A stretch of 54,930 nucleotides of DNA from Parcubacteria group bacterium GW2011_GWA2_43_11 (lineage in GTDB: Bacteria; Patescibacteriota; Minisyncoccia; Phycocordibacterales; UBA12088), in the NCBI GenBank assembly GCA_000998805.1, contig LCFC01000006.1, forward strand, positions 24,999 through 79,928, in the 5' to 3' direction. Each line of letters begins with the position of its first letter. Positions within the stretch are counted from its first letter, which is position 1. This document shows positions 1 to 52,800 of the stretch, piece after piece. Both the position numbers and the translations under genes were made by a program. Under the pieces are notes generated by a model that did not search any database, was not told the origin of the DNA, and saw nothing but the letters and a program-made list of their open reading frames with translations.

Positions 1-1074
1 GTGACACCTTTCCACAAAGCAGCAAACCGCTTACGCGAGGTGTTGCGTGGAGACGGAAGGCATGGAAGTGTCGGCATGGGGATAGGAGAGACAATGGCAG
101 ACATGATTGCCTTCCCACACCTTGCTGTACGTGCTCAAGACTTACGTTCGATAGAGACTGTCGAAAGGAAATGTAGAGGCTTGCAGGAACTTAAGTATGC
201 CGAGTTTAAGGAATTGTTTGCTGTCATTAGTGCGACAGGGTTGCTTCCTGACGAACTTCGGTTACTCACTGATTCACATGCTCCGAAAATGGTAGCACGT
301 GAGATGGTGCGTATTGCCAGATTATTTTCACTCGTTTCGATGAAAACGCTACAGCGCCTTTCGTACACCCACCCACTTATTTTTGAAGGAGCACAGGGTG
401 TACTTATCGACGAGTGGCATGGCTTTCATCCCTTTACGACATGGAGTACAACAACAAACGCGAATGCCAATGTGTTGCTCAGTGAGATTATGTATCCTGA
501 CGTTGTTACGCGTCTCGGTGTTGTGCGGGCGTACAGTACACGACACGGACCTGGACCGTTTCCGAGCGAAAGTAGAGAGCTCACCATGCGTTTGCCTGAC
601 ATGCACAATGGCTTTGGTGTCTGGCAGAGAGGCTTTCGGGTGGGATGGCTTGATATACCGCTCACACGATATGCACTCGCTGTTTCAGATGGTACGGACT
701 CTCTTGCACTGACGCATCTCGATAGATTTGCGTCTTTGTCACAAAAACGAGTGGTAAGGGCGTACCGAGTAGCAAAAGCAGACCTCACAGAAAAGGAAAA
801 ATCGGTGATGGTGACAGACAAGGAACAGTCAAATGATGACTACCTGCACATCGTTTCGTTTCGTCGTAAAGATATCCTCGAAGATCTTGGGTATCAAGAA
901 ATGATTGGTGCAATACTTGCAAAGGTAACACCGGTTGTAGAGGATATCCAATGTTCTGAAGAGTGTTTTGTGGATTATGTGAGCGAACTCCTTTTTCTTC
1001 CAGTTGACATTACGTCACATGGACCGACGGCGTTTGATAAACGTGAAAGAGTGCAGATGCAGTTAGCTGCATAA
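1..1074 (+). CDS. purA: Adenylosuccinate synthetase-like protein, 5' end outside window
   Basis: ORF is open to the window edge. FEGAQGVLIDEWHG.HPFTT and RAYSTRHGPGPFPSE resemble the PurA EGAQG / TRVGxGPFPTE core. A hairpin aaccgactag-tttc-tagttggtt follows the stop. Confidence 0.7.
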   Translation: MTPFHKAANRLREVLRGDGRHGSVGMGIGETMADMIAFPHLAVRAQDLRSIETVERKCRGLQELKYAEFKELFAVISATGLLPDELRLLTDSHAPKMVAREMVRIARLFSLVSMKTLQRLSYTHPLIFEGAQGVLIDEWHGFHPFTTWSTTTNANANVLLSEIMYPDVVTRLGVVRAYSTRHGPGPFPSESRELTMRLPDMHNGFGVWQRGFRVGWLDIPLTRYALAVSDGTDSLALTHLDRFASLSQKRVVRAYRVAKADLTEKEKSVMVTDKEQSNDDYLHIVSFRRKDILEDLGYQEMIGAILAKVTPVVEDIQCSEECFVDYVSELLFLPVDITSHGPTAFDKRERVQMQLAA

Positions 1075-1123
1075 GAATTCTTTCAATACTAACCGACTAG
1101 TTTCTAGTTGGTTAGTTTGTGTT
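937..1123 (+). repeat. Left copy of 187-bp direct repeat (purA 3' end plus terminator)
   Basis: Aligns base for base with 5207-5393, same length, 4 mismatches by manual alignment. Confidence 0.9.
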
Positions 1124-1235
1124 TTTTATTAAGAAATAGTAAGGATAGTATTAGGAACAAGCATATCTAACTTTTGAATATGAAACTACCCTCTTGGTTG
1201 TAGCCAAAAGGGCAGTTGTAAAAAATGTGGAAAAG

Positions 1236-1586
1236 TTACCTTTCGATAAAATCAGGGTTCCATCTCCCTTGCATAGACTTGTAGCCTGGAGGAAAGGCTT
1301 CGTTATACTCATGTCCACCATATTTTTCCATCAAGAAATACGTTATTTCGCATACCTTATCTCGTCCCAGATCGTCCATGTCAATAAATTTTTTTGTGTA
1401 TACCCGCGCGATAACATGGTTCTTTAGCGACGGGGTGAGACTTGGATCGATAAGAAAGTTGATGCTGGTGGTATCGAGTCTTGGAAAACCCCAGCTTTTT
1501 TGAAATGCTACTTGAATAACAAATCGAATCACGTCCATTGCGTCGGTCTCGTCTGCAGTAAAACCAGTAATGTCTACAATTGGCAT
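1236..1586 (-). CDS. Hypothetical protein (116 aa, starts MPIVDITG)
   Basis: ATG at 1586 preceded by aagggg. Its 3' 180 bp has a degenerate second copy at 7012-7190. Confidence 0.5.
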   Translation of the reverse strand: MPIVDITGFTADETDAMDVIRFVIQVAFQKSWGFPRLDTTSINFLIDPSLTPSLKNHVIARVYTKKFIDMDDLGRDKVCEITYFLMEKYGGHEYNEAFPPGYKSMQGRWNPDFIER

Positions 1587-9425: not shown

Positions 9426-9861
9426 AAATAAGCTAATATCCATAATTATCGCTAAATTTAAGTTATGTTTATACCAAAGTGGGTAATTATCTTATTTGTT
9501 ATCTGTTAGAACTGGGGTCAGACCCCACACAAAATTTCAAAAATGTGGTCTATTTTTTAAAGCATCTGATTATAAATGTATGTTTCGCGTGCTGTATATA
9601 GGTATCTTTCCTTACAACGTAAATATGCCTTTGCGATTTGTTTACGACTACTGTCGTTCACAAATAACGCAAAGCTTTTCGATGTCGGGTATCGACGATA
9701 CGTCATTAAGTAAATTCGTCACAAGCTCCTCATTTACTAAGTGCGTTTCGTCTAGGCTCAGCTGTGCTTAAGCACATGCTTCCGCCTTTCGATACCCCAC
9801 GTAACGTGCATTGGCACGTTACTCCATCTCCACCAAAAAACCGCCCTCAAAGGCGGTGTTT

Positions 9862-23811: not shown

Positions 23812-24672
23812 ATGACGGCACCTGGGGACTATGAATTTTCTTTCAAGCAAGATGACTTGGAGCGATCGTATCGTGTCCATATTCCCCTGGACTACGATCC
23901 CTCTGTCTCGTATCCAGTCCTCTTCGGCTTCCATGGAGGGTTTGGCAACGCCGAGCAATTCGCGCGTTCAACCCATCTCTCTGAACTCGCCGATCAGCGA
24001 GGGTTTATTGCCGTCTACGGCCAGGGGACGTCATGGGGAGTCCTCCAGGCCCCCGTGTGGAACGCGGGCGATTGCTGTGGGAGAGCAGTAGATTCAGATA
24101 AGAACGTGGACGATGTTGGATATGCCCGCGAAGTTATCGAAGAGATCAAGAAAAAATATCATGTTGATTCCTCCCGTATCTACATGACCGGCATGTCAAA
24201 CGGTGGCATGTTGGTGCAACGTCTGGCATGCGAGGCATCGGACCTATTTTCAGGTGCCGCTACCGTGTCGGGAACGATTGGTATCTCAACCTGTAGGCCC
24301 GCGCGTCAGATGCCCATTTTCATCATGCATGGGACAAACGACGAGAATGTCCCGTATGAAGGAGGTCGCGGATCGAAAGCAGTGAATGGAAGTAGTCATA
24401 TTCCCGTAGAGCAGGAGTTCGCCGACTGGGCAGCGCGCAATGCGTGTACCGGCGCAGTGTCGACTTCCCCTGTTGTGCACGCGGGAAGCGACGGCAAGTC
24501 GGTCGACAGACTTTCCAATGCGCACTGCGCTGAGCCCGTAGTCTTATATCGGGTGAATAACGGCGTACATGAGTGGCCTGGCGGCATGGCAAAAGCCAAT
24601 GCTCTTGAAAGGCCGACACCGACCAGCGCGATTGATACTTCAAAAACTATCGTTGACTTCTTCGGATTGTAG
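23812..24672 (+). CDS. PHB depolymerase / LpqC-family esterase, apparently lacking a signal peptide
   Basis: VLFGFHGG, the GMSNGG nucleophile elbow and HG..D..VP. Visibly higher GC than its neighbours. Frame is open from 23713 with no earlier start codon. Confidence 0.7.
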   Translation: MTAPGDYEFSFKQDDLERSYRVHIPLDYDPSVSYPVLFGFHGGFGNAEQFARSTHLSELADQRGFIAVYGQGTSWGVLQAPVWNAGDCCGRAVDSDKNVDDVGYAREVIEEIKKKYHVDSSRIYMTGMSNGGMLVQRLACEASDLFSGAATVSGTIGISTCRPARQMPIFIMHGTNDENVPYEGGRGSKAVNGSSHIPVEQEFADWAARNACTGAVSTSPVVHAGSDGKSVDRLSNAHCAEPVVLYRVNNGVHEWPGGMAKANALERPTPTSAIDTSKTIVDFFGL

Positions 24673-38347: not shown

Positions 38348-38638
38348 ATGTCTTCACTTGCAGCAGTTTTTGATAATCCACTTGCCGGTGATCCGGATTT
38401 GTATACATTATTGGGTTTAATACTGCAATCGGCAGTTTACATTCTTTTTCCTATCGTTGTACTCATGATTGTGTATACAGGCTTTCTTTTTGTGAGTGCA
38501 CAAGGCAATGCGTCCAAGCTGGAGGAAGCGCGGAGGGCATTGTTGTGGACAGTTATAGGGGCTCTGATAATTCTGGGTTCATGGGCACTTGCGGAAGCTA
38601 TTCGTGCAACGGTAAATAATATTGCAGGCAATCCATAA
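38348..38638 (+). CDS. Small two-TM pilin-like protein (TrbC/VirB2-like, CPR T4SS_pilin type), paralogue 1
   Basis: TM1, then a charged loop SAQGNASKLEEARRAL, then TM2. Confidence 0.6.
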   Translation: MSSLAAVFDNPLAGDPDLYTLLGLILQSAVYILFPIVVLMIVYTGFLFVSAQGNASKLEEARRALLWTVIGALIILGSWALAEAIRATVNNIAGNP

Positions 38639-38642
38639 GACT

Positions 38643-38960
38643 ATGAAAAGAATAAACAGTATTGGAAGACTGGCACTCTTGGGAATCATCATATTTCCTT
38701 CAAATTTGTTTGCTCAAGTTCAAGATTTCAAAAGCATTGCAACTATTTTTGTAAATCTTCTTAACACCTCTGTGCTCCTTATTATGGCTATGGCGGTATT
38801 CTTCTTTGTTATTGGTGCGATACGGTTTATTGCTACCGCTGGAGATGATAAAAGTAGGTCTGAAGGTAAACAAATGATGGTTTGGGGGACTTTGTCACTT
38901 TTTGTCATGGTTGCGGTATGGGGGATTGTGAATATTATTAGAACAACATTTTTTGGATAA
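38643..38960 (+). CDS. Pilin-like protein, paralogue 2
   Basis: Signal peptide ending FAQ, then TM, loop ATAGDDKSRSEGKQMMVWG and TM. Confidence 0.65.
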   Translation: MKRINSIGRLALLGIIIFPSNLFAQVQDFKSIATIFVNLLNTSVLLIMAMAVFFFVIGAIRFIATAGDDKSRSEGKQMMVWGTLSLFVMVAVWGIVNIIRTTFFG

Positions 38961-38961
38961 T

Positions 38962-39300
38962 ATGCGTTTTCTGCTTCCAATAGTTGGTATCATTTTACCA
39001 AACATACTATTCGCTCAAGCAACATTGTTTAATATTATTTTTGAGGCTCGTGAAGTATTTGTTGTATTGGTACAAGTAGGTCTTGCAGTTGCTCTTGTGG
39101 TGTTTGTTTGGGGTTTAATGGTGTTCATTGCGAACGCGGACAATGAGAAAGAAAGGGACGAAGGTAAAAGTAGAATGGTGTGGGGTATCGTTGCACTTTT
39201 TATGATAGTGAGTGTCTGGGGAGTAGTTGCATTACTTTCGGATTTAATGGGTGTTTCGGGAGCCGACACAACACAACCTGCACCGATTATTGAGTACTAA
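38962..39300 (+). CDS. Pilin-like protein, paralogue 3
   Basis: Signal peptide ending FAQ, then TM, loop ANADNEKERDEGKSRMVWG and TM. Confidence 0.65.
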   Translation: MRFLLPIVGIILPNILFAQATLFNIIFEAREVFVVLVQVGLAVALVVFVWGLMVFIANADNEKERDEGKSRMVWGIVALFMIVSVWGVVALLSDLMGVSGADTTQPAPIIEY

Positions 39301-39504
39301 GATTCTATCTCCAATAAGATAGACTTTAGGTATTCTTAATGTGTCCCATTACAACAACATTATCCCCAAGAACCTATTTTAATGAAGTAATATCGTGCTA
39401 TTCTTTACATGAAGCGAGTTCTGAAAATTAATTTTAATGTTTTTACTTATGTAGTAAATTCCATATTATTATTTTCGTTATTAGTTTATTAATAAATATA
39501 TAGT

Positions 39505-39867
39505 ATGAACAAAATTGCTAAAATACTTCCTGTTGGGTTAGTGGCTGCCCTTCCATGGCTTGCTCTAGCACAATCTTCAGTAGATTTATCATGGCTTAAT
39601 TCACTCGTTGCATCAGTAGGTAACTTGGTTGCCATGTTGATTCCGGTCGTGATTGCTATTGGTCTCCTCTTCTTCATCTGGGGACTTGTACAGTATATCG
39701 CCGCATCTGGTGATGAAGCTGCAAAGGATGAAGGAAAACGAAAGATGATTTGGGGAATCATTGCCCTATTCGTCATCGTAGCTGTCTGGGGACTGGTAGC
39801 ACTTCTTGGTGAACTAGTTGGTGTAGGTCAAGGAGATACAGTGATTACACCTACCATTCCTGTATAG
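39505..39867 (+). CDS. Pilin-like protein, paralogue 4
   Basis: Signal peptide ending LAQ, then TM, loop AASGDEAAKDEGKRKMIWG and TM. Confidence 0.65.
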   Translation: MNKIAKILPVGLVAALPWLALAQSSVDLSWLNSLVASVGNLVAMLIPVVIAIGLLFFIWGLVQYIAASGDEAAKDEGKRKMIWGIIALFVIVAVWGLVALLGELVGVGQGDTVITPTIPV

Positions 39868-39968
39868 TCTAGAAAAGCATATATTATGGAGCAACAAGCG
39901 CGAGAACACTCGCGCTTGTTGTGTATTACGGTGTTTTTTCTCCATCATGAATAGGATATACTTGTAGC

Positions 39969-40268
39969 ATGCCAGGATCAGTTCCAGCTGAAGTTCAAGG
40001 CCTTGTAGGCAGAATAGTGATTGAAATAATAAACCCTATTATTGGGGTAATTTTTGCAGCTGCACTCGTATACTTCCTATGGGGTTTGCTCATGTTTATT
40101 TTAAATGCTGGGAATGAAGCAAAACGGGGAGAATACAAGCAACATATGCTTTGGGGGCTAATAGGTCTAGTAGTCATGCTGTCAGCGTATGCGCTTATAG
40201 AAATAGGACTAAGAACATTTGGGGTTCAAAATAGTGATATGCCTCAAGGTCTCCCGATACGTTTATAG
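39969..40268 (+). CDS. Pilin-like protein, paralogue 5
   Basis: TM, loop NAGNEAKRGEYKQHMLWG, TM. Confidence 0.6.
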   Translation: MPGSVPAEVQGLVGRIVIEIINPIIGVIFAAALVYFLWGLLMFILNAGNEAKRGEYKQHMLWGLIGLVVMLSAYALIEIGLRTFGVQNSDMPQGLPIRL

Positions 40269-40407
40269 AAAGTTGAAAGTTTAATGTTAAAAGAAGAAAC
40301 CGCTAGCTGGCGGAGAATTAGAAAAAAGGAAATGTTCTAGTGCAAGTCCTCTTCTCGGCCAAAACAATAATCGCGAAATGCTTGTCGCATTCCGCTCTTT
40401 TGTTTTG

Positions 40408-40550
40408 TGCCGAGGAGAGGAATCTTTCTCTCTACGAGAGCAGTATAGGTTTCGCGTCTCACTTTCTCCTCGACAAGCTCGGAGTCGTTGCGACATGCTC
40501 AACCTTTTCAAGTCTTCTCACGCGAGCGGTATTGACCGCTCGCTCTCGGC
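40408..40550 (-). repeat. Foldback unit with tRNA-Leu(TAG)-derived termini
   Basis: Minus-sense 5' is GCCGAG, a hairpin (agcgagcgg..ccgctcgcg), then TGAGAAGACTTGAA. The 3' end GATTCCTCTCCTCGGCA copies the tRNA 3' end. Confidence 0.7.
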
Positions 40551-40588
40551 ACAAATAAAAAGAACCTTTGAAAGGTTCTTTTTATTTG

Positions 40589-40669
40589 TGCCGAGGAGAG
40601 GACTTGAACCTCCATGGGTCACCCCGCTTGCTCCTAAGGCAAGTGCGTCTACCATTTCGCCACCTCGGC
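40589..40669 (-). tRNA. tRNA-Leu (TAG)
   Basis: GCCGAGGTGGCGAAATGGTAGACGC, anticodon loop CTTAGGA, long variable arm, GGTTCAAGTCC. No encoded CCA. Confidence 0.85.
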
Positions 40670-40912
40670 ATAACGAAAGTATTCTACACTACTTTATAAA
40701 TAATTGCATTTACCCGCACACTAACAACACATGATAAATGTGTATATGTTATGTAGTAGAATGTTAGTGTGCGGGTTTACTCACACACTGTCCTAACCAT
40801 TATTTTGCTATTATATATAAACACCACTATTGTAATCTAAGTATATGTTGTGCAATTTTATGGTGAGTGTGCGGGTTTACATTATCCATAATTTGTTCTA
40901 AACTATCGCAAT

Positions 40913-40985
40913 CCGCCCATAGCTCAGCTGGTAGAGCAGTCGCCTCTTAAGCGAACGGTCGTAGGTCCGAGTCCTACTGGGCGGA
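40913..40985 (+). tRNA. tRNA-Lys (CTT)
   Basis: Acceptor CCGCCCA/TGGGCGG (C1-G72), D arm GCTCAGCTGGTAGAGC, anticodon loop CTCTTAA. Confidence 0.8.
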
Positions 40986-41323
40986 CTTGAGTAAAATATA
41001 ATAACCACACTTTTTGTGTGGTTATTATATTTTAGAACGCAAACTATTTTGCGTTCGTACTCAAGTCCGAAGCGGAAACATGTTCCATAGGAGCAGTTGA
41101 GCTGGGGTAGCGAGCACTTAGTTTTTGAGGAGTCTGTGACGAAAAAACTTAGTGACTCGTGACGACAGCGTAAAAAAATCAGTGCCTGTGCACTGATTTT
41201 AACATTTCAAAACGGGGAACTCAGTACATGGTACTCAATTATAGACAAATTTATTTTAGTAATTAAAATTACGGCTTAATGTAAGTAAATTTTAATACTC
41301 CAAATTATCTCAATCAAAAATGC

Positions 41324-41351
41324 TTGACAATTATCTAGGATAGTGTATACT
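41324..41351 (+). promoter_or_regulatory. Sigma70-like promoter of an orphan transcription unit
   Basis: TTGACA at 41324-41329, 16-nt spacer, TATACT at 41346-41351. Confidence 0.55.
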
Positions 41352-41689
41352 ACTTGACAGTTAGAACATTTTTATAGAGACATATTCACTCTGGGCTTTT
41401 TACAAAGCACACTGCAAATATGGGTGTTTCGGAGGCAGTATATGCTAACGGAAAACCAGAAACTTATCTTATGATAAGGAATACTGTTTCATTGTGCAGT
41501 AGAAGTTCGAAGCTTATTTTTTTGAAGTATCTATTTTTTGTAGGACCACCAATAGGCATGTGGAACAGAATTATTTTACGTAGTACGTGGTACGATGTAA
41601 AGTGGAATTACCTCATCGAAGAAGTTTCTCCGAACACCTGTGTGTCAGAATATCGACACATACTTACTTACTTAGCACACCAACCCCCC

Positions 41690-41729
41690 AGTAGCCGAGT
41701 CTGTATTTTGGACCGGCTACTTTATTTTT
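41690..41729 (+). terminator. Intrinsic terminator
   Basis: gtagccg...cggctac followed by tttattttt. A second perfect palindrome gatacctatttccgcg/cgcggaaataggtatc lies at 41761-41796. Confidence 0.65.
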
Positions 41730-41883
41730 ATATATATCATAAATTTAAAGAAAACTAAAAGATACCTATTTCCGCGACCGCGGAAATAGGTATCTTCTTT
41801 GTTTGGATATGTTGAAAACTATGTATGTAGGAATATATAAACTTTGATTCTTCCGCATTTTCTAGTATTCTTTGTTTGTGCAT

Positions 41884-41967
41884 GCCCGGGTGGTGAAATT
41901 GGTAGACACGCAAGACTTAAAATTTTGTGGCCGTAAGGCCATGCGGGTTCGATTCCCGCCCCGGGCA
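41884..41967 (+). tRNA. tRNA-Leu (TAA)
   Basis: GCCCGGGTGGTGAAATTGGTAGACAC, anticodon loop CTTAAAA, variable arm, GGTTCGATTCC. No encoded CCA. Confidence 0.85.
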
Positions 41968-41986
41968 CAAGAGCGAAGCGAATTGG

Positions 41987-42142
41987 GTTCGGGGAGTACT
42001 GTGCCTATGCACAGTACGTCGGGAATCGAAAGGCGCAGGCATATCGCCTTGCGATACCGAGCATAGACGAAACGCACTTAGGATTTGAGGAGTTTACGAC
42101 GAATAATACTTAGTGACGTATCGTCGATTCCCGCCCCGGGCA
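41987..42142 (+). repeat. Foldback unit U1 with tRNA-Leu(TAA)-derived termini
   Basis: 5' is GTTCGGG-GAG, a hairpin (tactgtgc-ctat-gcacagta), then CGTCGGGAATCGAAA. The 3' end is TCGATTCCCGCCCCGGGCA. The ends pair 7/7 with two G.U pairs. Confidence 0.75.
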
Positions 42143-42172
42143 CAGTTTAACGAACATAGTGAGGAAAACTGT

Positions 42173-42305
42173 GTTCGGGGAGAACGCAACCAATGTTGCG
42201 TTCGTCGGGAATCGAAAAGATTGATTATATTTTCGAAGAGCTTGCTCAGAGAAAATTTGAAATCTGTACCGTTCATGTAATGAAAGATTCCTGCCCTGGG
42301 CACCA
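42173..42305 (+). repeat. Foldback unit U2 with tRNA-Leu(TAA)-derived termini, ending in CCA
   Basis: 5' is GTTCGGG-GAG, a hairpin (aacgcaa..ttgcgtt), then CGTCGGGAATCGAAA. The 3' end is GATTCCTGCCCTGGGCACCA. Confidence 0.7.
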
Positions 42306-42447
42306 GAAAGGAAAAAACAAGCGGTTTTGGTTCGCTTTGCTTTGATCGGCGACTAATTTGTTTTCAATTTTAGGAGAAGATAATTTATTAATCCAAAAGA
42401 GCCAATAAACGTCTATAAACAAGGCTATTTTATTTGCCAGAGCGAGC

Positions 42448-42476
42448 TTGACAGGAGTATTTTAATATGCTATATT
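42448..42476 (+). promoter_or_regulatory. Sigma70-like promoter of the GC-rich orphan gene
   Basis: TTGACA at 42448-42453, 17-nt spacer, TATATT at 42471-42476. Confidence 0.6.
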
Positions 42477-42620
42477 TTTGCCCTAATAGGGATTATTTAG
42501 CTCTTTTACAGCAGAGATAGACGCTTTTACTCGATAGCAACGCATTCTGTATCTACCACTAGGTATGTAATGCGTTGCTAGAATCGAGTAAACAAACACA
42601 CCTAACAAAAGGAGAATATT

Positions 42621-43241
42621 GTGGAAACCGAACGAACATTTAACATTCTGGAAACGTGCTGTTTTCCAAAGGGATGTCTCATCCCTGAGGATCTTCAGCC
42701 TTACTTGGCGACAGTCCTCATCCCGCAGCTCGAAGCGGCGGGCATAAAAACAGCCGAGTGGACTCGCGGTGCGCTGATGTTGGAAGAGCCCCACCTGTCG
42801 AAGGTCAGGGGTATCGTCTGCAGACAGTGCAACATCCGCGAGTGTCCGTTTAATCCGCACTTCAAGCCGACCGATGGTCTCAGCGACCTGATGGACGGAC
42901 AGTACGCGGATCGCATCGAGAGAGGTGACCAGCTTCTCGCACAGCTTCTTCCTGAAGCGAAGAAGACGGAACTCGAGCATAAAGGAATCAAGGTCATCGC
43001 GTTTCAGATGCCCTCGAGGAAGAACCCCAAGCTCGTGTTCTCGTTCACTCGGAACGACAAGACGCGTCGGGTGAGCTGTGAAGTCGGCAAGCGCCGTCTC
43101 TTGACGGACGAGGGCGAGGAAACTCTGCTCTCGCTCGAACAACTTGATCAGAAGATCGGGGAAGCGATTCGCGGGTTGACCATCTACACCGCTCTCCTTA
43201 CTCTCGATCAAACGATCGGTCTGCAAATCAGGCAAAACTGA
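42621..43241 (+). CDS. Hypothetical protein (206 aa), GC-rich foreign-looking gene
   Basis: aaggag RBS 6 nt before the GTG. Terminator at 43258-43303. Contains CRQCNIRECPFNPH. No family recognised. Confidence 0.6.
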   Translation: METERTFNILETCCFPKGCLIPEDLQPYLATVLIPQLEAAGIKTAEWTRGALMLEEPHLSKVRGIVCRQCNIRECPFNPHFKPTDGLSDLMDGQYADRIERGDQLLAQLLPEAKKTELEHKGIKVIAFQMPSRKNPKLVFSFTRNDKTRRVSCEVGKRRLLTDEGEETLLSLEQLDQKIGEAIRGLTIYTALLTLDQTIGLQIRQN

Positions 43242-43257
43242 TTTCGGCTCGGCCAAC

Positions 43258-43303
43258 GGCCTCGACTGCGGCATCCAATGCTGTGGTCGAGGCCTTTCTT
43301 TTT
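43258..43303 (+). terminator. Intrinsic terminator
   Basis: ggcctcgac...gtcgaggcc followed by tttcttttt. Confidence 0.75.
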
Positions 43304-43567
43304 GGTTAATTTTTTGATAAATTAAATTCATAATTGAATCCCGTCAAAAAAAACTTAAATTGTCAGCGGTGCGGCTCCGCCACCTTTCCGAATTTTCGCG
43401 GGGGGATTTCTTTGCCCCGAAGGTGGCGAAATGTGTTCGGACTAATTCAAGAATAGTGCACAGTTTAACAAGCGCAGTGAGGAAAACTGTGCTCGGGGAG
43501 AACACAAGCATTGTGCATTGGCACATTGCTTGCGTTCTCAAATTACTCGCATTGTGAGTTAAATTTG

Positions 43568-43798
43568 AGGCCTGGGCGGGGATCGTCCCAGAATTGCGGA
43601 TATTTTTATTGTGATGAATCACTAAAAAATATCTCGCATTCTCGGACGGCCACTCGCTGTCTTTCGTATCCTCAAGACATGCTCCGTGGCTTGACCAATT
43701 TTTCTTATGATCCGCCAGCGGGCGAAGAGTTAGAAAAATGGAAATAACCTCGTGTCACGATTCCGCACGTACTGTGCGTAGGTACAGTACTCCAAACC
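43568..43798 (-). repeat. Foldback unit A with tRNA-Cys-derived termini
   Basis: Minus-sense 5' is GGTTTGG-AG, a hairpin (tactgtac-ctac-gcacagta), then CGTGCGGAATCG. The 3' end is GATCCCCGCCCAGGCCT. The ends pair 7/7 with two G.U pairs. Carries the X and W hairpin modules. Confidence 0.75.
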
Positions 43799-43837
43799 TC
43801 AAATCAAAATGCACCTAGTGAGGTGCATTTTGATTTG

Positions 43838-43994
43838 AGGCCTGGGCGGGATCGTCCCAGAATCGCGGATATTTTGCTCCAAGTATTCGCAAAATATACT
43901 CGCGTTCTTGGACGGCCACTCACTGTTGCTTTGCAACAGGCTCCGTGGCTTCGATTCCCGACGCAAGCAAAGCAGTTTGCTTGGCTCCCAGGCA
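43838..43994 (-). repeat. Foldback unit B with tRNA-Cys-derived termini
   Basis: Minus-sense 5' is TGCCTGG-GAG, a hairpin (caagcaaa-ctgc-tttgcttg), then CGTCGGGAATCGAA. The 3' end is GATCCCGCCCAGGCCT. Carries the X and W modules. Confidence 0.75.
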
Positions 43995-44024
43995 TGAAAA
44001 AACCGCAAAGCGGTATTTTCAGTG

Positions 44025-44096
44025 AGGCCTGGGCGGGAATCGAACCCGCGCATGTCGGTTTTGCAGACCGAAGCGTTACCTCTTCGCCACCAGGCC
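44025..44096 (-). tRNA. tRNA-Cys (GCA)
   Basis: GGCCTGGTGGCGAAGAGGTAACGC, anticodon loop CTGCAAA, GGTTCGATTCC. Terminator accgc-ttt-gcggt lies downstream at about 43997-44019. Confidence 0.85.
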
Positions 44097-44237
44097 AATA
44101 TTCTATTGTAAATTAAGTAAGGGTTCGATTCCATCGATCCTTACAGGATCAGTACACCTTGTCGCTATTCTTCCTCGTGCTCTCGAAGAATATCTGGCAA
44201 GGTCTTGCGGAGCTCCATGTATTCGCTCCTCACCCCC

Positions 44238-44283
44238 ACACGTCGGCTTTTAGACCGAAGCGTTACCTCTTCGCCACCAGGCC
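44238..44283 (-). pseudogene. Duplicate of the tRNA-Cys 5' half (no T arm)
   Basis: agaccgaagcgttacctcttcgccaccaggccaatat is identical to the real gene plus 5 nt of upstream flank. The anticodon region has changed to CTAAAAG. Confidence 0.7.
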
Positions 44284-44467
44284 AATATGTAATACTTTCC
44301 ACACTTAACTGTTCGGTATTGCTAATTTCATGGATTGCTTCGCTTGCGAGCTCGCAATGACGAGCCATTACTTGAAGCAGGTATATTCATTTTCTCAGCA
44401 CTGAAGCGTTACTTCATCCCGCCATGGGACGGGACAAGCTTCACCACTGAGCCATTCCGACAGTGTA

Positions 44468-44791
44468 TCACTCAGCGAGCAATTCATCTACTCTTCGGCG
44501 ACTTTTTTCCCCTTCGTCAATCATAAATTCAACATGAGGGATGTGGTTCATCTTGGATTTTTCTTTTAGATACTTTTTACACTCTCCTCGTTTTCGCATG
44601 AGAAAACCGAGAGCAGGACCTTCCGCTGTTTCAGGAAATACGGAAACGTAAAACGTTATCTTGTCGAGTGAGTGAGTGAGCTCGGTATTCGTAATAGTGA
44701 TAAGGGATGTTTTGTTGGACTGTGTGTTTACATATGCTGCAGCCAGCTCTTGCAAGTGCTGGGTAAGTACAGTGTGTCGTTGTTGGCTCAT
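44468..44791 (-). CDS. rbfA: Ribosome-binding factor A
   Basis: About 107 aa directly downstream of infB. ITITNTELT.....ITFYVSVF pattern. Confidence 0.75.
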   Translation of the reverse strand: MSQQRHTVLTQHLQELAAAYVNTQSNKTSLITITNTELTHSLDKITFYVSVFPETAEGPALGFLMRKRGECKKYLKEKSKMNHIPHVEFMIDEGEKSRRRVDELLAE

Positions 44792-44795
44792 AGAT

Positions 44796-46313
44796 CTACT
44801 CTTCAGTTACGGTATAAGCAATAATAGTGTCATTGTAGGTAGGTTCTGATTCAAGTGCAACTTCCATTTGTAGTCCGCAATCATTGTTTTCTCCAACACG
44901 TGACGTGTCGGTTTTTCCTGATTTCATTGAAAGTATTTTTCCACGTCCAAGCTCCACGTCACCCTTTTTTATAATTATTCTATCTTTCACTGAAATTTCA
45001 CCTGACTCAACTCGACAGCCCACGGTCTGTGCTTTTTTTGTAAAGCTAAAACTTTTAAGAATTTTTGCAGTGCCTAGTATTTTTTCTTGGCGTATTTTAG
45101 GGCGTCTCGCTTCTATAGCGCCCTGTATCCAGTCCGTAAGTTCATAAATGATAGAGAAGTGCATAATTTCTACCCCAACGCGCAGAGCGAGCTCTTGTGC
45201 AGCACTATCAGCCCCCACATTGAAGCCAATAATAATAGTGTCTTTCTTTCCACTGGCATACTTTATATCTCCTTCTGCTATTTTTCCTACGCCCTCATAG
45301 ATGATGTGGATACTTGTATTCTCATCCTCGTGCTTGCGAAGTTCGTGCTTAATAGCTTCAAGTGAACCTACTACATCGCATTTTATGATTACGGGGACAT
45401 TGTATCGTTTGCCACTTTCTTCAGCCTCTGAAGCCATCACCTTGTTTGAGACAGAAGAAAGTTGTACCGCATGTGCGACCTCTAGTGCTTCTTTTTTTGT
45501 TGGCACGGTTATGAATGTAGCTCCCACAGGAGGGTTTTCCGAGAAGCCAACAACCATAATAGGTGTAGAGAAAGTAGCTTCGTGTATTTTATTCCCAAGA
45601 AAATTTTCAACAATGCGGAGTGGAGCATACGCTTGTCCAGCGACGACATACGCACCAGTTTTAAGTGAACCATTTTTAATGAGAAGTGTTGCAGAAATAC
45701 CTCGCTTTGGATCACATCGGGACTCTATCACGGTACCTGTAGCCGGTACGGTAGGGTCGCCCGTAAGTTCTTCCATGTCGGTCGCGAGGAGTAGTAGGTC
45801 AAGTAGCTCAGGTATTCCTCTACCTGATTTCGAATCAATAAGTGAGTATGAGATAGAACCTCCCATTCCCTCAAGGTATATACCGTGCTCAACAAGACTT
45901 GATTTTGTTTTTTCTATGTCTGCATTGTTCTTGTCTATTTTGGAGATAGCAACAAGGTAGGGAATACCTGCTTCCTCAATAGCTTTAAGAGCCTGTAGTG
46001 TTTGTGGTTTAACACCATCGTCAGCGGCGACCACAAGAATTGCCAAGTCGGCAACACTCGATCCTCGTGATCGAAGGTGTTGGAAAGCCTCATGTCCAGG
46101 AGTATCAAGAAATGTGATAAGTCGTTTTTCACCTGCTGAGTTGGTGTGTTCCACTTCGTACGCTGAAAGATGTTGTGTGATACCACCGGCTTCACCTTCA
46201 ACTACTTTGGTTTTACGGATATAATCAAGAAGCGTGGACTTGCCATGATCTATGTGCCCCATAACGGTAACAACAGGAGGACGTTTTATGCGATTGTTGG
46301 AATTTGCAGGCAT
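44796..46313 (-). CDS. infB: Translation initiation factor IF-2 (short form)
   Basis: RPPVVTVMGHIDHGKSTLLD, DTPGHEAF and the domain order of IF-2. Only about 505 aa. Confidence 0.95.
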   Translation of the reverse strand: MPANSNNRIKRPPVVTVMGHIDHGKSTLLDYIRKTKVVEGEAGGITQHLSAYEVEHTNSAGEKRLITFLDTPGHEAFQHLRSRGSSVADLAILVVAADDGVKPQTLQALKAIEEAGIPYLVAISKIDKNNADIEKTKSSLVEHGIYLEGMGGSISYSLIDSKSGRGIPELLDLLLLATDMEELTGDPTVPATGTVIESRCDPKRGISATLLIKNGSLKTGAYVVAGQAYAPLRIVENFLGNKIHEATFSTPIMVVGFSENPPVGATFITVPTKKEALEVAHAVQLSSVSNKVMASEAEESGKRYNVPVIIKCDVVGSLEAIKHELRKHEDENTSIHIIYEGVGKIAEGDIKYASGKKDTIIIGFNVGADSAAQELALRVGVEIMHFSIIYELTDWIQGAIEARRPKIRQEKILGTAKILKSFSFTKKAQTVGCRVESGEISVKDRIIIKKGDVELGRGKILSMKSGKTDTSRVGENNDCGLQMEVALESEPTYNDTIIAYTVTEE

Positions 46314-52693: not shown

Positions 52694-52800
52694 CTTCCGC
52701 CCGAGAATTGCGGATATGTTGCTCCAAGTATTCGCAACATATACTCGCATTCTTGGACGGCCACTCACTGTTGCTTCGCAACATGTTCCGTGGCTTGACC
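52694..52800 (-). repeat. X-W hairpin module, copy C
   Basis: Collinear with 43855-43950 (copy B) over about 95 nt. Substitutions in the stems are paired. Confidence 0.8.

Follow-up and report, generated by a model that had tools for sequence, protein, structure and literature searches.

Between a tRNA-Leu(UAA) gene and a tRNA-Cys(GCA) gene of Parcubacteria group bacterium GW2011_GWA2_43_11 (assembly GCA_000998805.1, contig LCFC01000006.1) lies a gene that is visibly richer in G+C than the DNA around it and has its own promoter and terminator. The question raised by this locus is what kind of gene occupies such a slot, and how it came to be there. We analyzed a stretch of 54,930 nucleotides of the contig (positions 24,999 to 79,928 of the forward strand), referred to in the following as the window, in which the gene lies at 42621-43241. 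Its product has four invariant cysteines and is here called the Cys4 protein. We consider it reasonably likely that Saccharibacteria-like Patescibacteria exchange modular cassettes horizontally at sites directly behind their tRNA genes, and that the Cys4 gene is the cargo of one of them. The parts of the putative cassette in the window, and the competing frame on the other strand, are listed below; L numbers denote loci, G numbers genomes and C numbers contigs.

42306-42447, plus strand: degenerate "module U" (a tRNA trailer) with its terminator hairpin; aligns with L003, L010, L012 and the platform described below.
42448-42476, plus strand: sigma-70-type promoter with extended -10 (TTGACA, 17 nt, TG-n-TATATT); 11 of 12 consensus positions.
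42484-42620, plus strand: 5' leader of about 137 nt from a presumed transcription start site; minimum free energy -42.3 kcal/mol, z = -4.7.
42609-42614, plus strand: ribosome-binding site (RBS) AAGGAG, 6 nt 5' of the GTG, identified from the sequence and conserved in upstream alignments.
42621-43241, plus strand: coding sequence of the Cys4 protein, 206 aa, GTG start; from homolog searches, alignment and an AlphaFold2 (AF2) model.
43258-43304, plus strand: intrinsic terminator, a 17-bp stem (43258-43294) with 10 G-C pairs, followed by a T-run.
43357-43467, plus strand: right-hand "arm", a dispersed repeat of about 110 nt that follows the cargo in other loci.
42483-43331, minus strand: shadow open reading frame (ORF) of 282 aa, not a gene; no Pfam match.

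The compositional contrast, already remarked on in an earlier reading made from the letters alone (the sequence-only reading), is pronounced. The GC content over 42621-43241 is 0.54-0.57, compared with 0.34-0.36 in the preceding 400 nt and 0.418 in the whole window. The codon-usage check that had been suggested gave a G+C content at third codon positions (GC3) of 0.675, the top of the genome and above all 635 long ORFs used as reference (z = 5.2). The reference set comprised the non-overlapping ORFs of at least 150 aa in the 929-kb genome of 47 contigs, with a mean GC3 of 0.369, a standard deviation of 0.059 and a maximum of 0.596.

The minus-strand ORF is longer than the gene, and the sequence-only reading had taken it for a shadow of the GC-rich coding frame. 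When 18 homologous loci were compared, the sense frame was free of stops in 17, and the lone stop, in L012, arose from the compared range overrunning the stop codon. The codon-aligned antisense frame was open in 10 of the 18 loci and contained 2-8 stops in the other eight (L004, L005, L009, L011, L012, L015, L016 and L019); it was open solely where GC3 was very high, as a shadow frame would be. The promoter, RBS and terminator all belong to the plus strand. The length of the minus-strand ORF and its openness in ten loci notwithstanding, the chance that it is the real gene appears negligible, and the conserved frame is the sense one.

The evidence for a cassette comes from the DNA on either side of the gene. 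L003, L010 and L012 share about 190 nt upstream of it, starting a few bases from the CCA end of a tRNA. This left module, referred to in the following as the platform, runs from module U (a trailer of about 125 nt) through a terminator hairpin to the promoter. Behind each of four different tRNAs, the distance from the CCA end to the start of the platform is no more than a few bases. Over 42360-42396 the window is 86% identical to L012 by blastn. In the genome bearing L003, a second platform copy was found behind tRNA-Arg(UCU), with the same terminator and promoter and with a different leader and gene (L048; 114 aa, GC 0.59 and GC3 0.86 in a locus with GC 0.45; ORF at 1061-1402, minus strand). 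At L050, L051 and L052 the platform match includes the promoter, which likewise precedes a small, unrelated gene of high GC3. The L050 cargo (140 aa, GC3 0.69) lies behind tRNA-Leu(UAA) next to tRNA-Cys, which is the window's own site; the L051 cargo has 57 aa from an internal ATG (63 aa in the listed ORF) and GC3 0.84, and the L052 cargo 106 aa and GC3 0.66. None of these four cargos matched a family at threshold. The L050 and L052 products look membrane-like, the former with a weak match to MBOAT_2 (E = 0.004, first 70 aa only).

In a DNA search of the order, 24 of 381 genomes contained the platform; they represent 21 of 218 genera, and the platform is eight times commoner than the Cys4 gene (3 of 401 genomes). 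In 9 of the 20 platform loci returned, a tRNA gene on the same strand lay at most 190 nt upstream. When nine copies with five types of cargo were aligned, the terminator, TTGAC and ATATGCTA-A-T were invariant, and the copies diverged immediately after the -10.

Downstream of the cargo, the right-hand arm was found with its orientation unchanged in L048, L050, L051, L052 and L012; it was present in 15 of the 20 platform loci, three of which have only pieces of 27-53 nt. It is highly multi-copy in the groundwater DNA run X5. In L006 and L008, which are independent contigs, the arm makes inverted repeats of 100-103 nt (96-98% complementary) around the Cys4 cassette; no terminal inverted repeats were found in the window, L003, L010 or L012. 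We also considered the arm as a structured RNA and rejected this, the folding being non-significant on either strand (z = -0.9 to -1.65, with -1.5 for 43357-43467). The apparent presence of two inverted gene copies on L021 was discounted: this metagenome contig is an assembly artifact that forms a near-perfect palindrome from end to end, its arms being 86-100% complementary, and its gene copy shows frameshift-like errors.

From left to right, a cassette starts with the trailer of about 125 nt running from the tRNA CCA end, a terminator hairpin with which the tRNA unit ends, and a near-consensus extended -10 promoter. The cargo-specific leader and RBS come next, with a single small gene of high GC3 and its intrinsic terminator; in several loci the arm, some 110 nt long, closes the unit. 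At least four unrelated small GC3-rich genes elsewhere are bracketed by this platform and arm. Cassettes would presumably spread by DNA uptake and recombination via the conserved flanks (platform, arm and tRNA-trailer repeats), with no enzyme of their own.

The tRNA setting of the window's copy is made up of the following features.

41884-41968, plus strand: tRNA-Leu(UAA), the host tRNA preceding the cassette (ARAGORN; Rfam 59.4 bits).
42111-42144, plus strand: 3' end of a pseudo-tRNA; behind it, at 42140-42196, lies the first (left) copy of a 57-nt direct repeat (repeat families D3 and D1).
42282-42305, plus strand: 24-nt fragment resembling a tRNA 3' end and ending in GCACCA, from alignment with real tRNA 3' ends; the platform begins right after it.
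43458-43514, plus strand: second copy of the 57-nt direct repeat, on the right of the unit, with 86% identity to 42140-42196.
44024-44096, minus strand: tRNA-Cys(GCA), the other border of the variable slot (ARAGORN; repeat families D5 and D6).

The placement of the gene between tRNA-Leu(TAA) and tRNA-Cys units, as described in the sequence-only reading, is therefore correct, with partial tRNA copies and other repeats occupying the space between the two tRNA genes. The 57-nt direct repeat brackets the whole unit and has just two copies in the genome; it was not seen in L003, L010 or L012. To count tRNA adjacency we used 19 distinct loci, having dropped L014 and L018 (duplicates of L013 and L017) and the pseudogene fragment L023, and having kept L021 although its contig is the palindromic artifact. 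A tRNA gene lay within 400 nt in 10 of the 19, while the tRNAs nearest to the window's gene are 653 and 783 nt away. Taking 3% of the genome to be that near a tRNA, we obtained a binomial P of ~5e-11; a conservative count of independent contexts (8 of 13) gives ~8e-10.

Several further repeats were observed around tRNA genes in this genome. Repeat families of 80-190 nt, with 72-91% identity, follow many tRNA genes and the tmRNA gene. In the window they lie at 41994-42144, 42213-42293, 43576-43764, 43847-43951, 9686-9825 and 52698-52796, and there are copies after tRNA-Arg (C40, C34), tRNA-Ala (C2), tRNA-Pro (C15, C26), tRNA-Tyr and the tmRNA. Some terminate in a pseudo T-arm, acceptor and CCA, and could be terminators, processing signals or mobile repeats. 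Next to the intact tRNA-Cys gene, each of its halves recurs in partial copies (44044-44101 and 44232-44288; 43566-43585, 43836-43855 and 44023-44042), one 37-nt copy being 100% identical; tRNA-Pro at L003 likewise has partial copies (35 nt at 100% and 36 nt at 97%). A 19-nt stretch in the 3' extension of the Cys4 gene (43216-43234) is 84% complementary to the anticodon-arm region of tRNA-Cys (44053-44071), a likeness that we treated as chance, which it probably is.

The distribution of the gene is patchy. Samples of 401 genomes each contained one genome with the gene for the phylum (that of the window), three for the order and two for the class; one of the three order copies is a fragment with two TGA stops. 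The fragment L023 (G509:C5:3445-3654), covering residues 13-83 with two in-frame TGA codons, is degenerate and looks like a decaying copy. A genome of the same genus (G758, 97% complete) has neither the cassette nor the repeats. It does have rbfA, tRNA-Cys, tRNA-Leu(UAA), tRNA-Lys and tRNA-Leu(UAG), the four tRNAs being packed into about 510 nt. The gene is also absent from five genomes of the same family, and in three same-family genomes without the cassette the tRNA set is shared and other ORFs fill the variable space.

The same site is occupied by the cassette at L003 (also seen as G931), in the order infB, rbfA, tRNA-Cys, tRNA-Leu(UAA), cassette; relative to this order, the block of tRNA-Leu and cassette in the window is inverted. 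The cassette proteins of the two are 87% identical and the noncoding leader cores 95%, with 73% identity at fourfold sites, whereas translation initiation factor IF-2 is only 46% identical between the two genomes, showing that the cassette is much younger than its hosts. The tRNA-Leu genes are only 74% identical, so that this tRNA was not co-transferred with the cassette. A rough, uncalculated estimate puts dN/dS of the gene at 0.3-0.4. Apart from the tRNAs, homology between loci by blastn is restricted to a segment from 42428/42465 through 43303-43462. Close copies (81-86% nucleotide identity) sit behind tRNA-Leu(UAA), tRNA-Tyr, tRNA-Leu(CAA) and tRNA-Leu(UAG) and adjoin unrelated housekeeping genes, the flanking ORFs including infB, rbfA, dnaA, dnaN, ruvB, asnS, miaA, fmt and def. 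No integrase, transposase or phage gene was found among 44 flanking ORFs scanned at 10 loci and the window, and neither 50,697 phage records and 72,556 plasmids (both searched by tblastn) nor IMG/VR contained a relative. These sequence comparisons indicate that the Cys4 gene has moved horizontally, in keeping with the earlier view of it as cargo in a mobile-looking tRNA context.

The surplus of G+C is a property of the gene in most of its loci. GC was at least 0.11 above that of the flanks in 15 of the 19 loci, the four exceptions being L007, L008 and L021, where the flanks are short or artifactual, and L015, which has a GC-rich host. GC3 exceeded that of the pooled flanking ORFs in all 11 loci with usable flanks, by 0.15 to 0.42, including deep branches (relatives 39-60% identical) and the GC-rich host of L015. 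In the window's genome, the other ORFs with top GC3 are accessory: a hydrolase, a hybrid histidine kinase, a TrmB regulator, an IS110 transposase and several unknowns, with no ribosomal or chaperone gene among the highest. High GC3 in this genome therefore marks foreign genes, and we rejected high expression as its cause. We infer that the surplus marks a separate, GC-richer pool of cassette genes; selection on mRNA, or biased gene conversion via repeated recombination, may be its source instead. The hydrolase, an alpha/beta-hydrolase-like ORF at 23812-24672 with Peptidase_S9 and esterase matches, has the second-highest GC3 of the genome (0.57) and was possibly imported. Base composition varies widely within the genus, locus L029 of G758 (G758:C12:6400-9576) having GC 0.50-0.58 compared with 0.42 for the window's genome.

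These observations also bear on an explanation without transfer, in which the gene would be vertically inherited, lineage-specific and mostly lost, and its GC3 surplus would stem from selection (for high expression or mRNA stability) or biased gene conversion. Such a history would account for a surplus that recurs in all 11 loci, distant relatives included, and that tracks host GC3 (r = 0.63). It would also fit the shared synteny of the window with L003 (infB-rbfA-tRNA-Cys-tRNA-Leu) and of L004, L016 and L017 (dnaA-dnaN), and the presence of a consensus promoter in each lineage inspected. It is nevertheless improbable, given the excess of cassette over IF-2 identity, the missing gene in the same-genus and five same-family genomes, and the close copies behind different tRNAs beside unrelated genes. 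Moreover, high GC3 marks accessory and not highly expressed genes in the window's genome, and unrelated cargos in the same platform have the same surplus.

What the window's cassette encodes is a protein from a very small family. A word-indexed search gave 45 homologs at E <= 0.01, mostly of 185-189 aa, all of them unnamed or "hypothetical" and none with a Pfam domain. A profile search of 1.84 billion representatives gave 67 at E <= 1e-3, 49 at <= 1e-10 and 18 at <= 1e-30. The GTG start agrees with the relatives, and the window's copy has 19 additional C-terminal codons (188-206; 43182-43238) that are lineage-specific and missing in most of them. The earlier statement that the protein could not be assigned to a family was borne out, there being no match at threshold in Pfam, PHROGs, NCBIfam or PADLOC; a scan of 14 longer family members revealed no informative fused domain.

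In 33 full-length members, whose identity goes as low as 22%, C19, C67, C70, C75 and R98 are invariant and P16, L37, P57, L109 and S132 nearly so; no His, Asp or Glu of a catalytic type is invariant. The cysteines are spaced C-x47-C-x2-C-x4-C. Of the Cys/His knuckle described in the sequence-only reading, only the three cysteines are invariant; its histidine is an arginine in most relatives, and the fourth ligand would be the remote C19. Four invariant cysteines suggest a metal center, either Zn or Fe-S, predicted to be held by C19, C67, C70 and C75.

An AF2 model built from 26 sequences had a pLDDT (the model's own confidence measure) of 89.8. Residues 1-95, which contain the Cys cluster, were mostly helical (helices and coil), and residues 96-187 formed an alpha/beta sandwich; the N-terminal domain modeled alone reached a pLDDT of just 61.9. 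Following the structural check that had been proposed, we searched this model with Foldseek against the PDB, where the best E was 0.18, and no known fold emerged. With VIA-align (48,161 chains) the best Z was 7.1, for residues 85-196 only and in the noise range, the top likenesses being the Mediator Med17 C-terminus, the TriTu immunity protein, PsiB and frataxin-like sandwiches. The BFVD fold search yielded only uncharacterized proteins (best E 0.016), the PDB sequence profile only designed TIM barrels (E 0.2-0.7), and the ESM Atlas no usable match for residues 96-187. On the model, the C-terminal sandwich may be likened to small protein-binding modules such as immunity proteins, PsiB and secretion chaperones (Z 6-7). 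It is possible, and we suggest it tentatively, that the Cys4 protein is a small metal-dependent accessory binder or regulator that acts stoichiometrically, perhaps in a conflict role such as immunity, and is not an enzyme.

The nearest hint of an enzyme was Endonuclease VII, whose clusters were the top three for the whole protein in the ESM Atlas (score 0.83, below the lead level of 0.9) and whose Pfam model (PF02945) matched 15 residues with 12.6 bits, compared with a cut-off of 23.6 (E = 0.13). Endonuclease VII and other His-Me finger nucleases have a conserved catalytic His and Asn/Asp and a beta-beta-alpha-metal fold. The family has no invariant His, Asp or Glu beside its four Cys and R98, which speaks against a His-Me nuclease, and no PDB chain of that type appeared in the family profile search at E <= 10. 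As regards the fold, residues 1-95 are helices and coil in the full model, and the low pLDDT of the N-terminal domain on its own adds little to this. These leads would nevertheless be expected if the cassette were an autonomous mini mobile element that targets tRNA 3' ends and uses the Cys4 protein as its own nuclease or recombinase, in the style of a homing gene or a tiny insertion sequence (IS). The long inverted repeats of L006 and L008, the start of the platform beside the CCA ends of four tRNAs and the varied tRNA contexts of the gene point the same way. The residues of the family, the sub-threshold scores and the single gene copy in the window's genome (the apparent second copy in L021 being the palindromic artifact) make this very unlikely, as does the traffic of other cargos on the same platform and arm without the Cys4 protein. 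The platform is found in 24 of 381 genomes compared with 3 of 401 for the gene, and G663 has trailer modules and no Cys4 gene. Since the platform and the tRNA-trailer repeats occur in genomes without the gene, the protein does not make or move the repeats, and the suggestion that it is the factor acting on them did not hold.

Upstream of the coding sequence, the sequence-only reading had described an 18-bp bulged stem in the leader. The stem is real and proved longer: 42526-42557 pairs with 42562-42592 over about 29 bp with a 3-nt bulge. This hairpin (42526-42592) has a folding energy of -33.9 kcal/mol (z = -7.5), and none of 200 shuffles folded equally well. Its 3' end lies 16 nt from the RBS, which is left uncovered. 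In 10 copies of the close clade the leader core is 82-98% identical to the window's, compared with 64-79% at fourfold coding sites of the same loci. In an 11-sequence consensus structure 97.7% of cells are paired; nine pairs differ on a single side and keep their pairing via G-U, and two are compensatory, a count that was matched by 29 of 500 shuffles. The plus strand folded better than the minus strand in 4 of 4 loci tested, which fits an RNA-level role in the sense transcript. L004, whose protein is 60% identical, has a 24-bp hairpin of different sequence in an equivalent position. No long hairpin lies upstream of the gene in L005, L013, L016, L017, L019 or L020, so that the feature is confined to the close clade and L004.

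Conservation above that of the coding sequence, stable and strand-specific folding, pairs maintained through G-U and a different hairpin at the same place in L004 would all suit an RNA-plus-protein system, as the sequence-only reading had proposed, in which the leader, as a processed small RNA or as a riboregulator, would be a partner or a ligand of the protein. We regard this as quite unlikely and did not find it borne out. Searching the leader (42477-42620) against Rfam gave no match at E <= 1, and the only matches over the scanned span of 40000-45500 were to tRNAs and, by chance and elsewhere, to miRNA-type families. Six other lineages have no long upstream hairpin, the covariation is weak, the RBS is not covered, and the ends of a leader RNA are not readable from the RNA contigs described below. 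The clade-specific hairpin would act on the sense RNA, as a stabilizer of the mRNA or a binding site, and not as a separate RNA partner.

The transcription signals described earlier for this gene (the TTGACA-17-TATATT promoter, the AAGGAG, the terminator and, with the leader, a complete plus-strand unit) were all recovered. Taken as a whole, the promoter scan was not enriched (8 sites compared with 6.1 expected from shuffles), so the weight of the promoter rests on its conservation: it is kept in 9 of 9 aligned platform sequences, with the TTGAC and ATATGCTA columns invariant. The terminator is 88-97% identical in L007, L009 and L011. RNA contigs from three freshwater libraries of three studies cover the coding sequence of relatives (corresponding to 42642-43167) with 90-95% identity; none of them reaches into the leader. 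This is a weak hint that the Cys4 gene is expressed, and its transcription would presumably be constitutive.

Elsewhere in the window, a run of short paralogous ORFs lies at 38390-40240, of which 39505-39864 matches T4SS_pilin (PF18895, E = 5e-11). Related genomes have five or six tandem paralogs at the corresponding site.

A number of points weigh against the exchanged-cassette reading of the Cys4 locus. Eight of the 19 loci have no tRNA in the available sequence, four of these being contigs of 1.1-2.1 kb; the G476 copy has no tRNA within 6 kb, and the nearest to L015 is 2.5 kb away. The linkage to tRNA-Leu(UAA) is partly shared synteny (window and L003; L016 and L017). The window's own platform copy is degenerate and has no second copy in its genome, and the alternative cargos examined were only four. 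Neither a recombination event nor a recombination enzyme was seen, and retention of a working tRNA trailer could by itself explain the platform, just as the arm could be a dispersed repeat of no special kind. The correlation of the gene's GC3 with that of the host (P = 0.04, n = 11, loci not independent) also counts here. A gene-specific force that raises GC would fit the GC3 pattern at least as well as recent import, and no donor lineage in which the gene's GC3 equals the host's was found among the 11 loci with usable flanks. The function of the protein was read from conserved residues and from a fold likeness in the noise range (best Z 7.1). The hint of expression comes from RNA contigs, in which strand, ends and level are not readable and DNA carry-over is possible.

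With these points taken into account, a modular cassette exchanged behind tRNA genes is still what we think the window probably contains. It is more doubtful whether such cassettes form a distinct class: integrase-less, promoter-bearing units that would dock at tRNA CCA ends with a left module of about 190 nt, an arm of about 110 nt and a GC3 surplus of 0.15-0.42, with the Cys4 gene as one widespread conflict or regulatory cargo. In such a class, the surplus could reflect biased gene conversion from frequent recombination, or else a mobile gene pool of its own.

Little is understood of how Patescibacteria, with their very small genomes and few recognized mobile elements, acquire accessory genes. 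If cassettes of this kind exist, a slot behind tRNAs with a ready-made terminator and a strong promoter would offer a simple route to trade foreign genes and express them instantly, and the platform and arm would provide a sequence handle for harvesting the cargo pool from metagenomes. The Cys4 family folds confidently without a known relative and is a candidate for structural and biochemical work, and a GC3 surplus retained in every host is a small evolutionary puzzle. A literature search for such cassettes in Saccharibacteria and Patescibacteria found no paper on the family or the cassette, which is not proof that none exists.

Among known systems, phage morons are independent transcription units spread by horizontal transfer (PMC3594210). 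The cassette resembles them in being a single gene with its own promoter and terminator, of a composition unlike that of its neighbors, horizontally spread and placed between unrelated genes. It differs in lying in the chromosome, among housekeeping and tRNA genes and not in a prophage, with no relatives in phages, IMG/VR or plasmids, and in having conserved end modules common to different cargos. Promoter reuse and mobile promoters occur in prokaryotes (PMC3575422). The likeness to these is a near-identical promoter region ahead of non-homologous genes in different genomes and genera (9 sequences, 5 cargos); what differs is that the cassette promoter has a tRNA trailer on its left, that a second conserved module bounds the cargo on the right, and that the cargos seen are all small and GC3-rich.

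The Cys4 protein itself invites comparison with the WhiB-like and FNR-type Fe-S proteins, with which it shares a remote Cys, a C-x2-C-x(4-5)-C cluster and a small, mostly helical domain. The WhiB-like pattern is C-Xn-C-X2-C-X5-C. The spacing in the Cys4 protein is x4 (C-x47-C-x2-C-x4-C), there is no Pfam match to these families at E <= 1, an alpha/beta domain is attached at the C-terminus, and the metal is only predicted; membership in the WhiB-like proteins was rejected.

Integrons exchange small single-gene cassettes of varied function at a defined slot. The cassette described here shares this arrangement and departs from it in that each cassette has its own promoter, with no attC-like site recognized and no adjacent integrase gene. 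Small IS elements and miniature inverted-repeat transposable elements (MITEs) have terminal inverted repeats, together with a transposase (IS) or a high copy number (MITE). The 100-103-nt inverted repeats of L006 and L008 and the dispersed, multi-copy arm recall such elements, whereas no transposase is recognizable, the cassette is single-copy in the window's genome, no target duplication is definable, and the window, L003, L010 and L012 lack inverted repeats, their left end being a tRNA with its trailer. Finally, tRNA-linked genomic islands and integrative elements use a tRNA 3'-end site and have atypical GC, flanking repeats with the 3' part of the tRNA, and an integrase. With these the cassette has in common its position at tRNA 3' ends and its atypical GC. 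In the window it is also flanked by partial tRNA 3' copies and by the 57-nt direct repeat, whose left copy abuts a pseudo-tRNA end, whereas L003, L010 and L012 do not show this repeat. The cassette is unlike such islands in its size of about 1.2 kb, its single gene and its occurrence behind many different tRNAs, with no integrase in the window or in the flanks scanned. Among all these systems, the cassette is closest to phage morons, to reused or mobile promoters and to tRNA-linked islands, sharing some of their defining features and departing from others.

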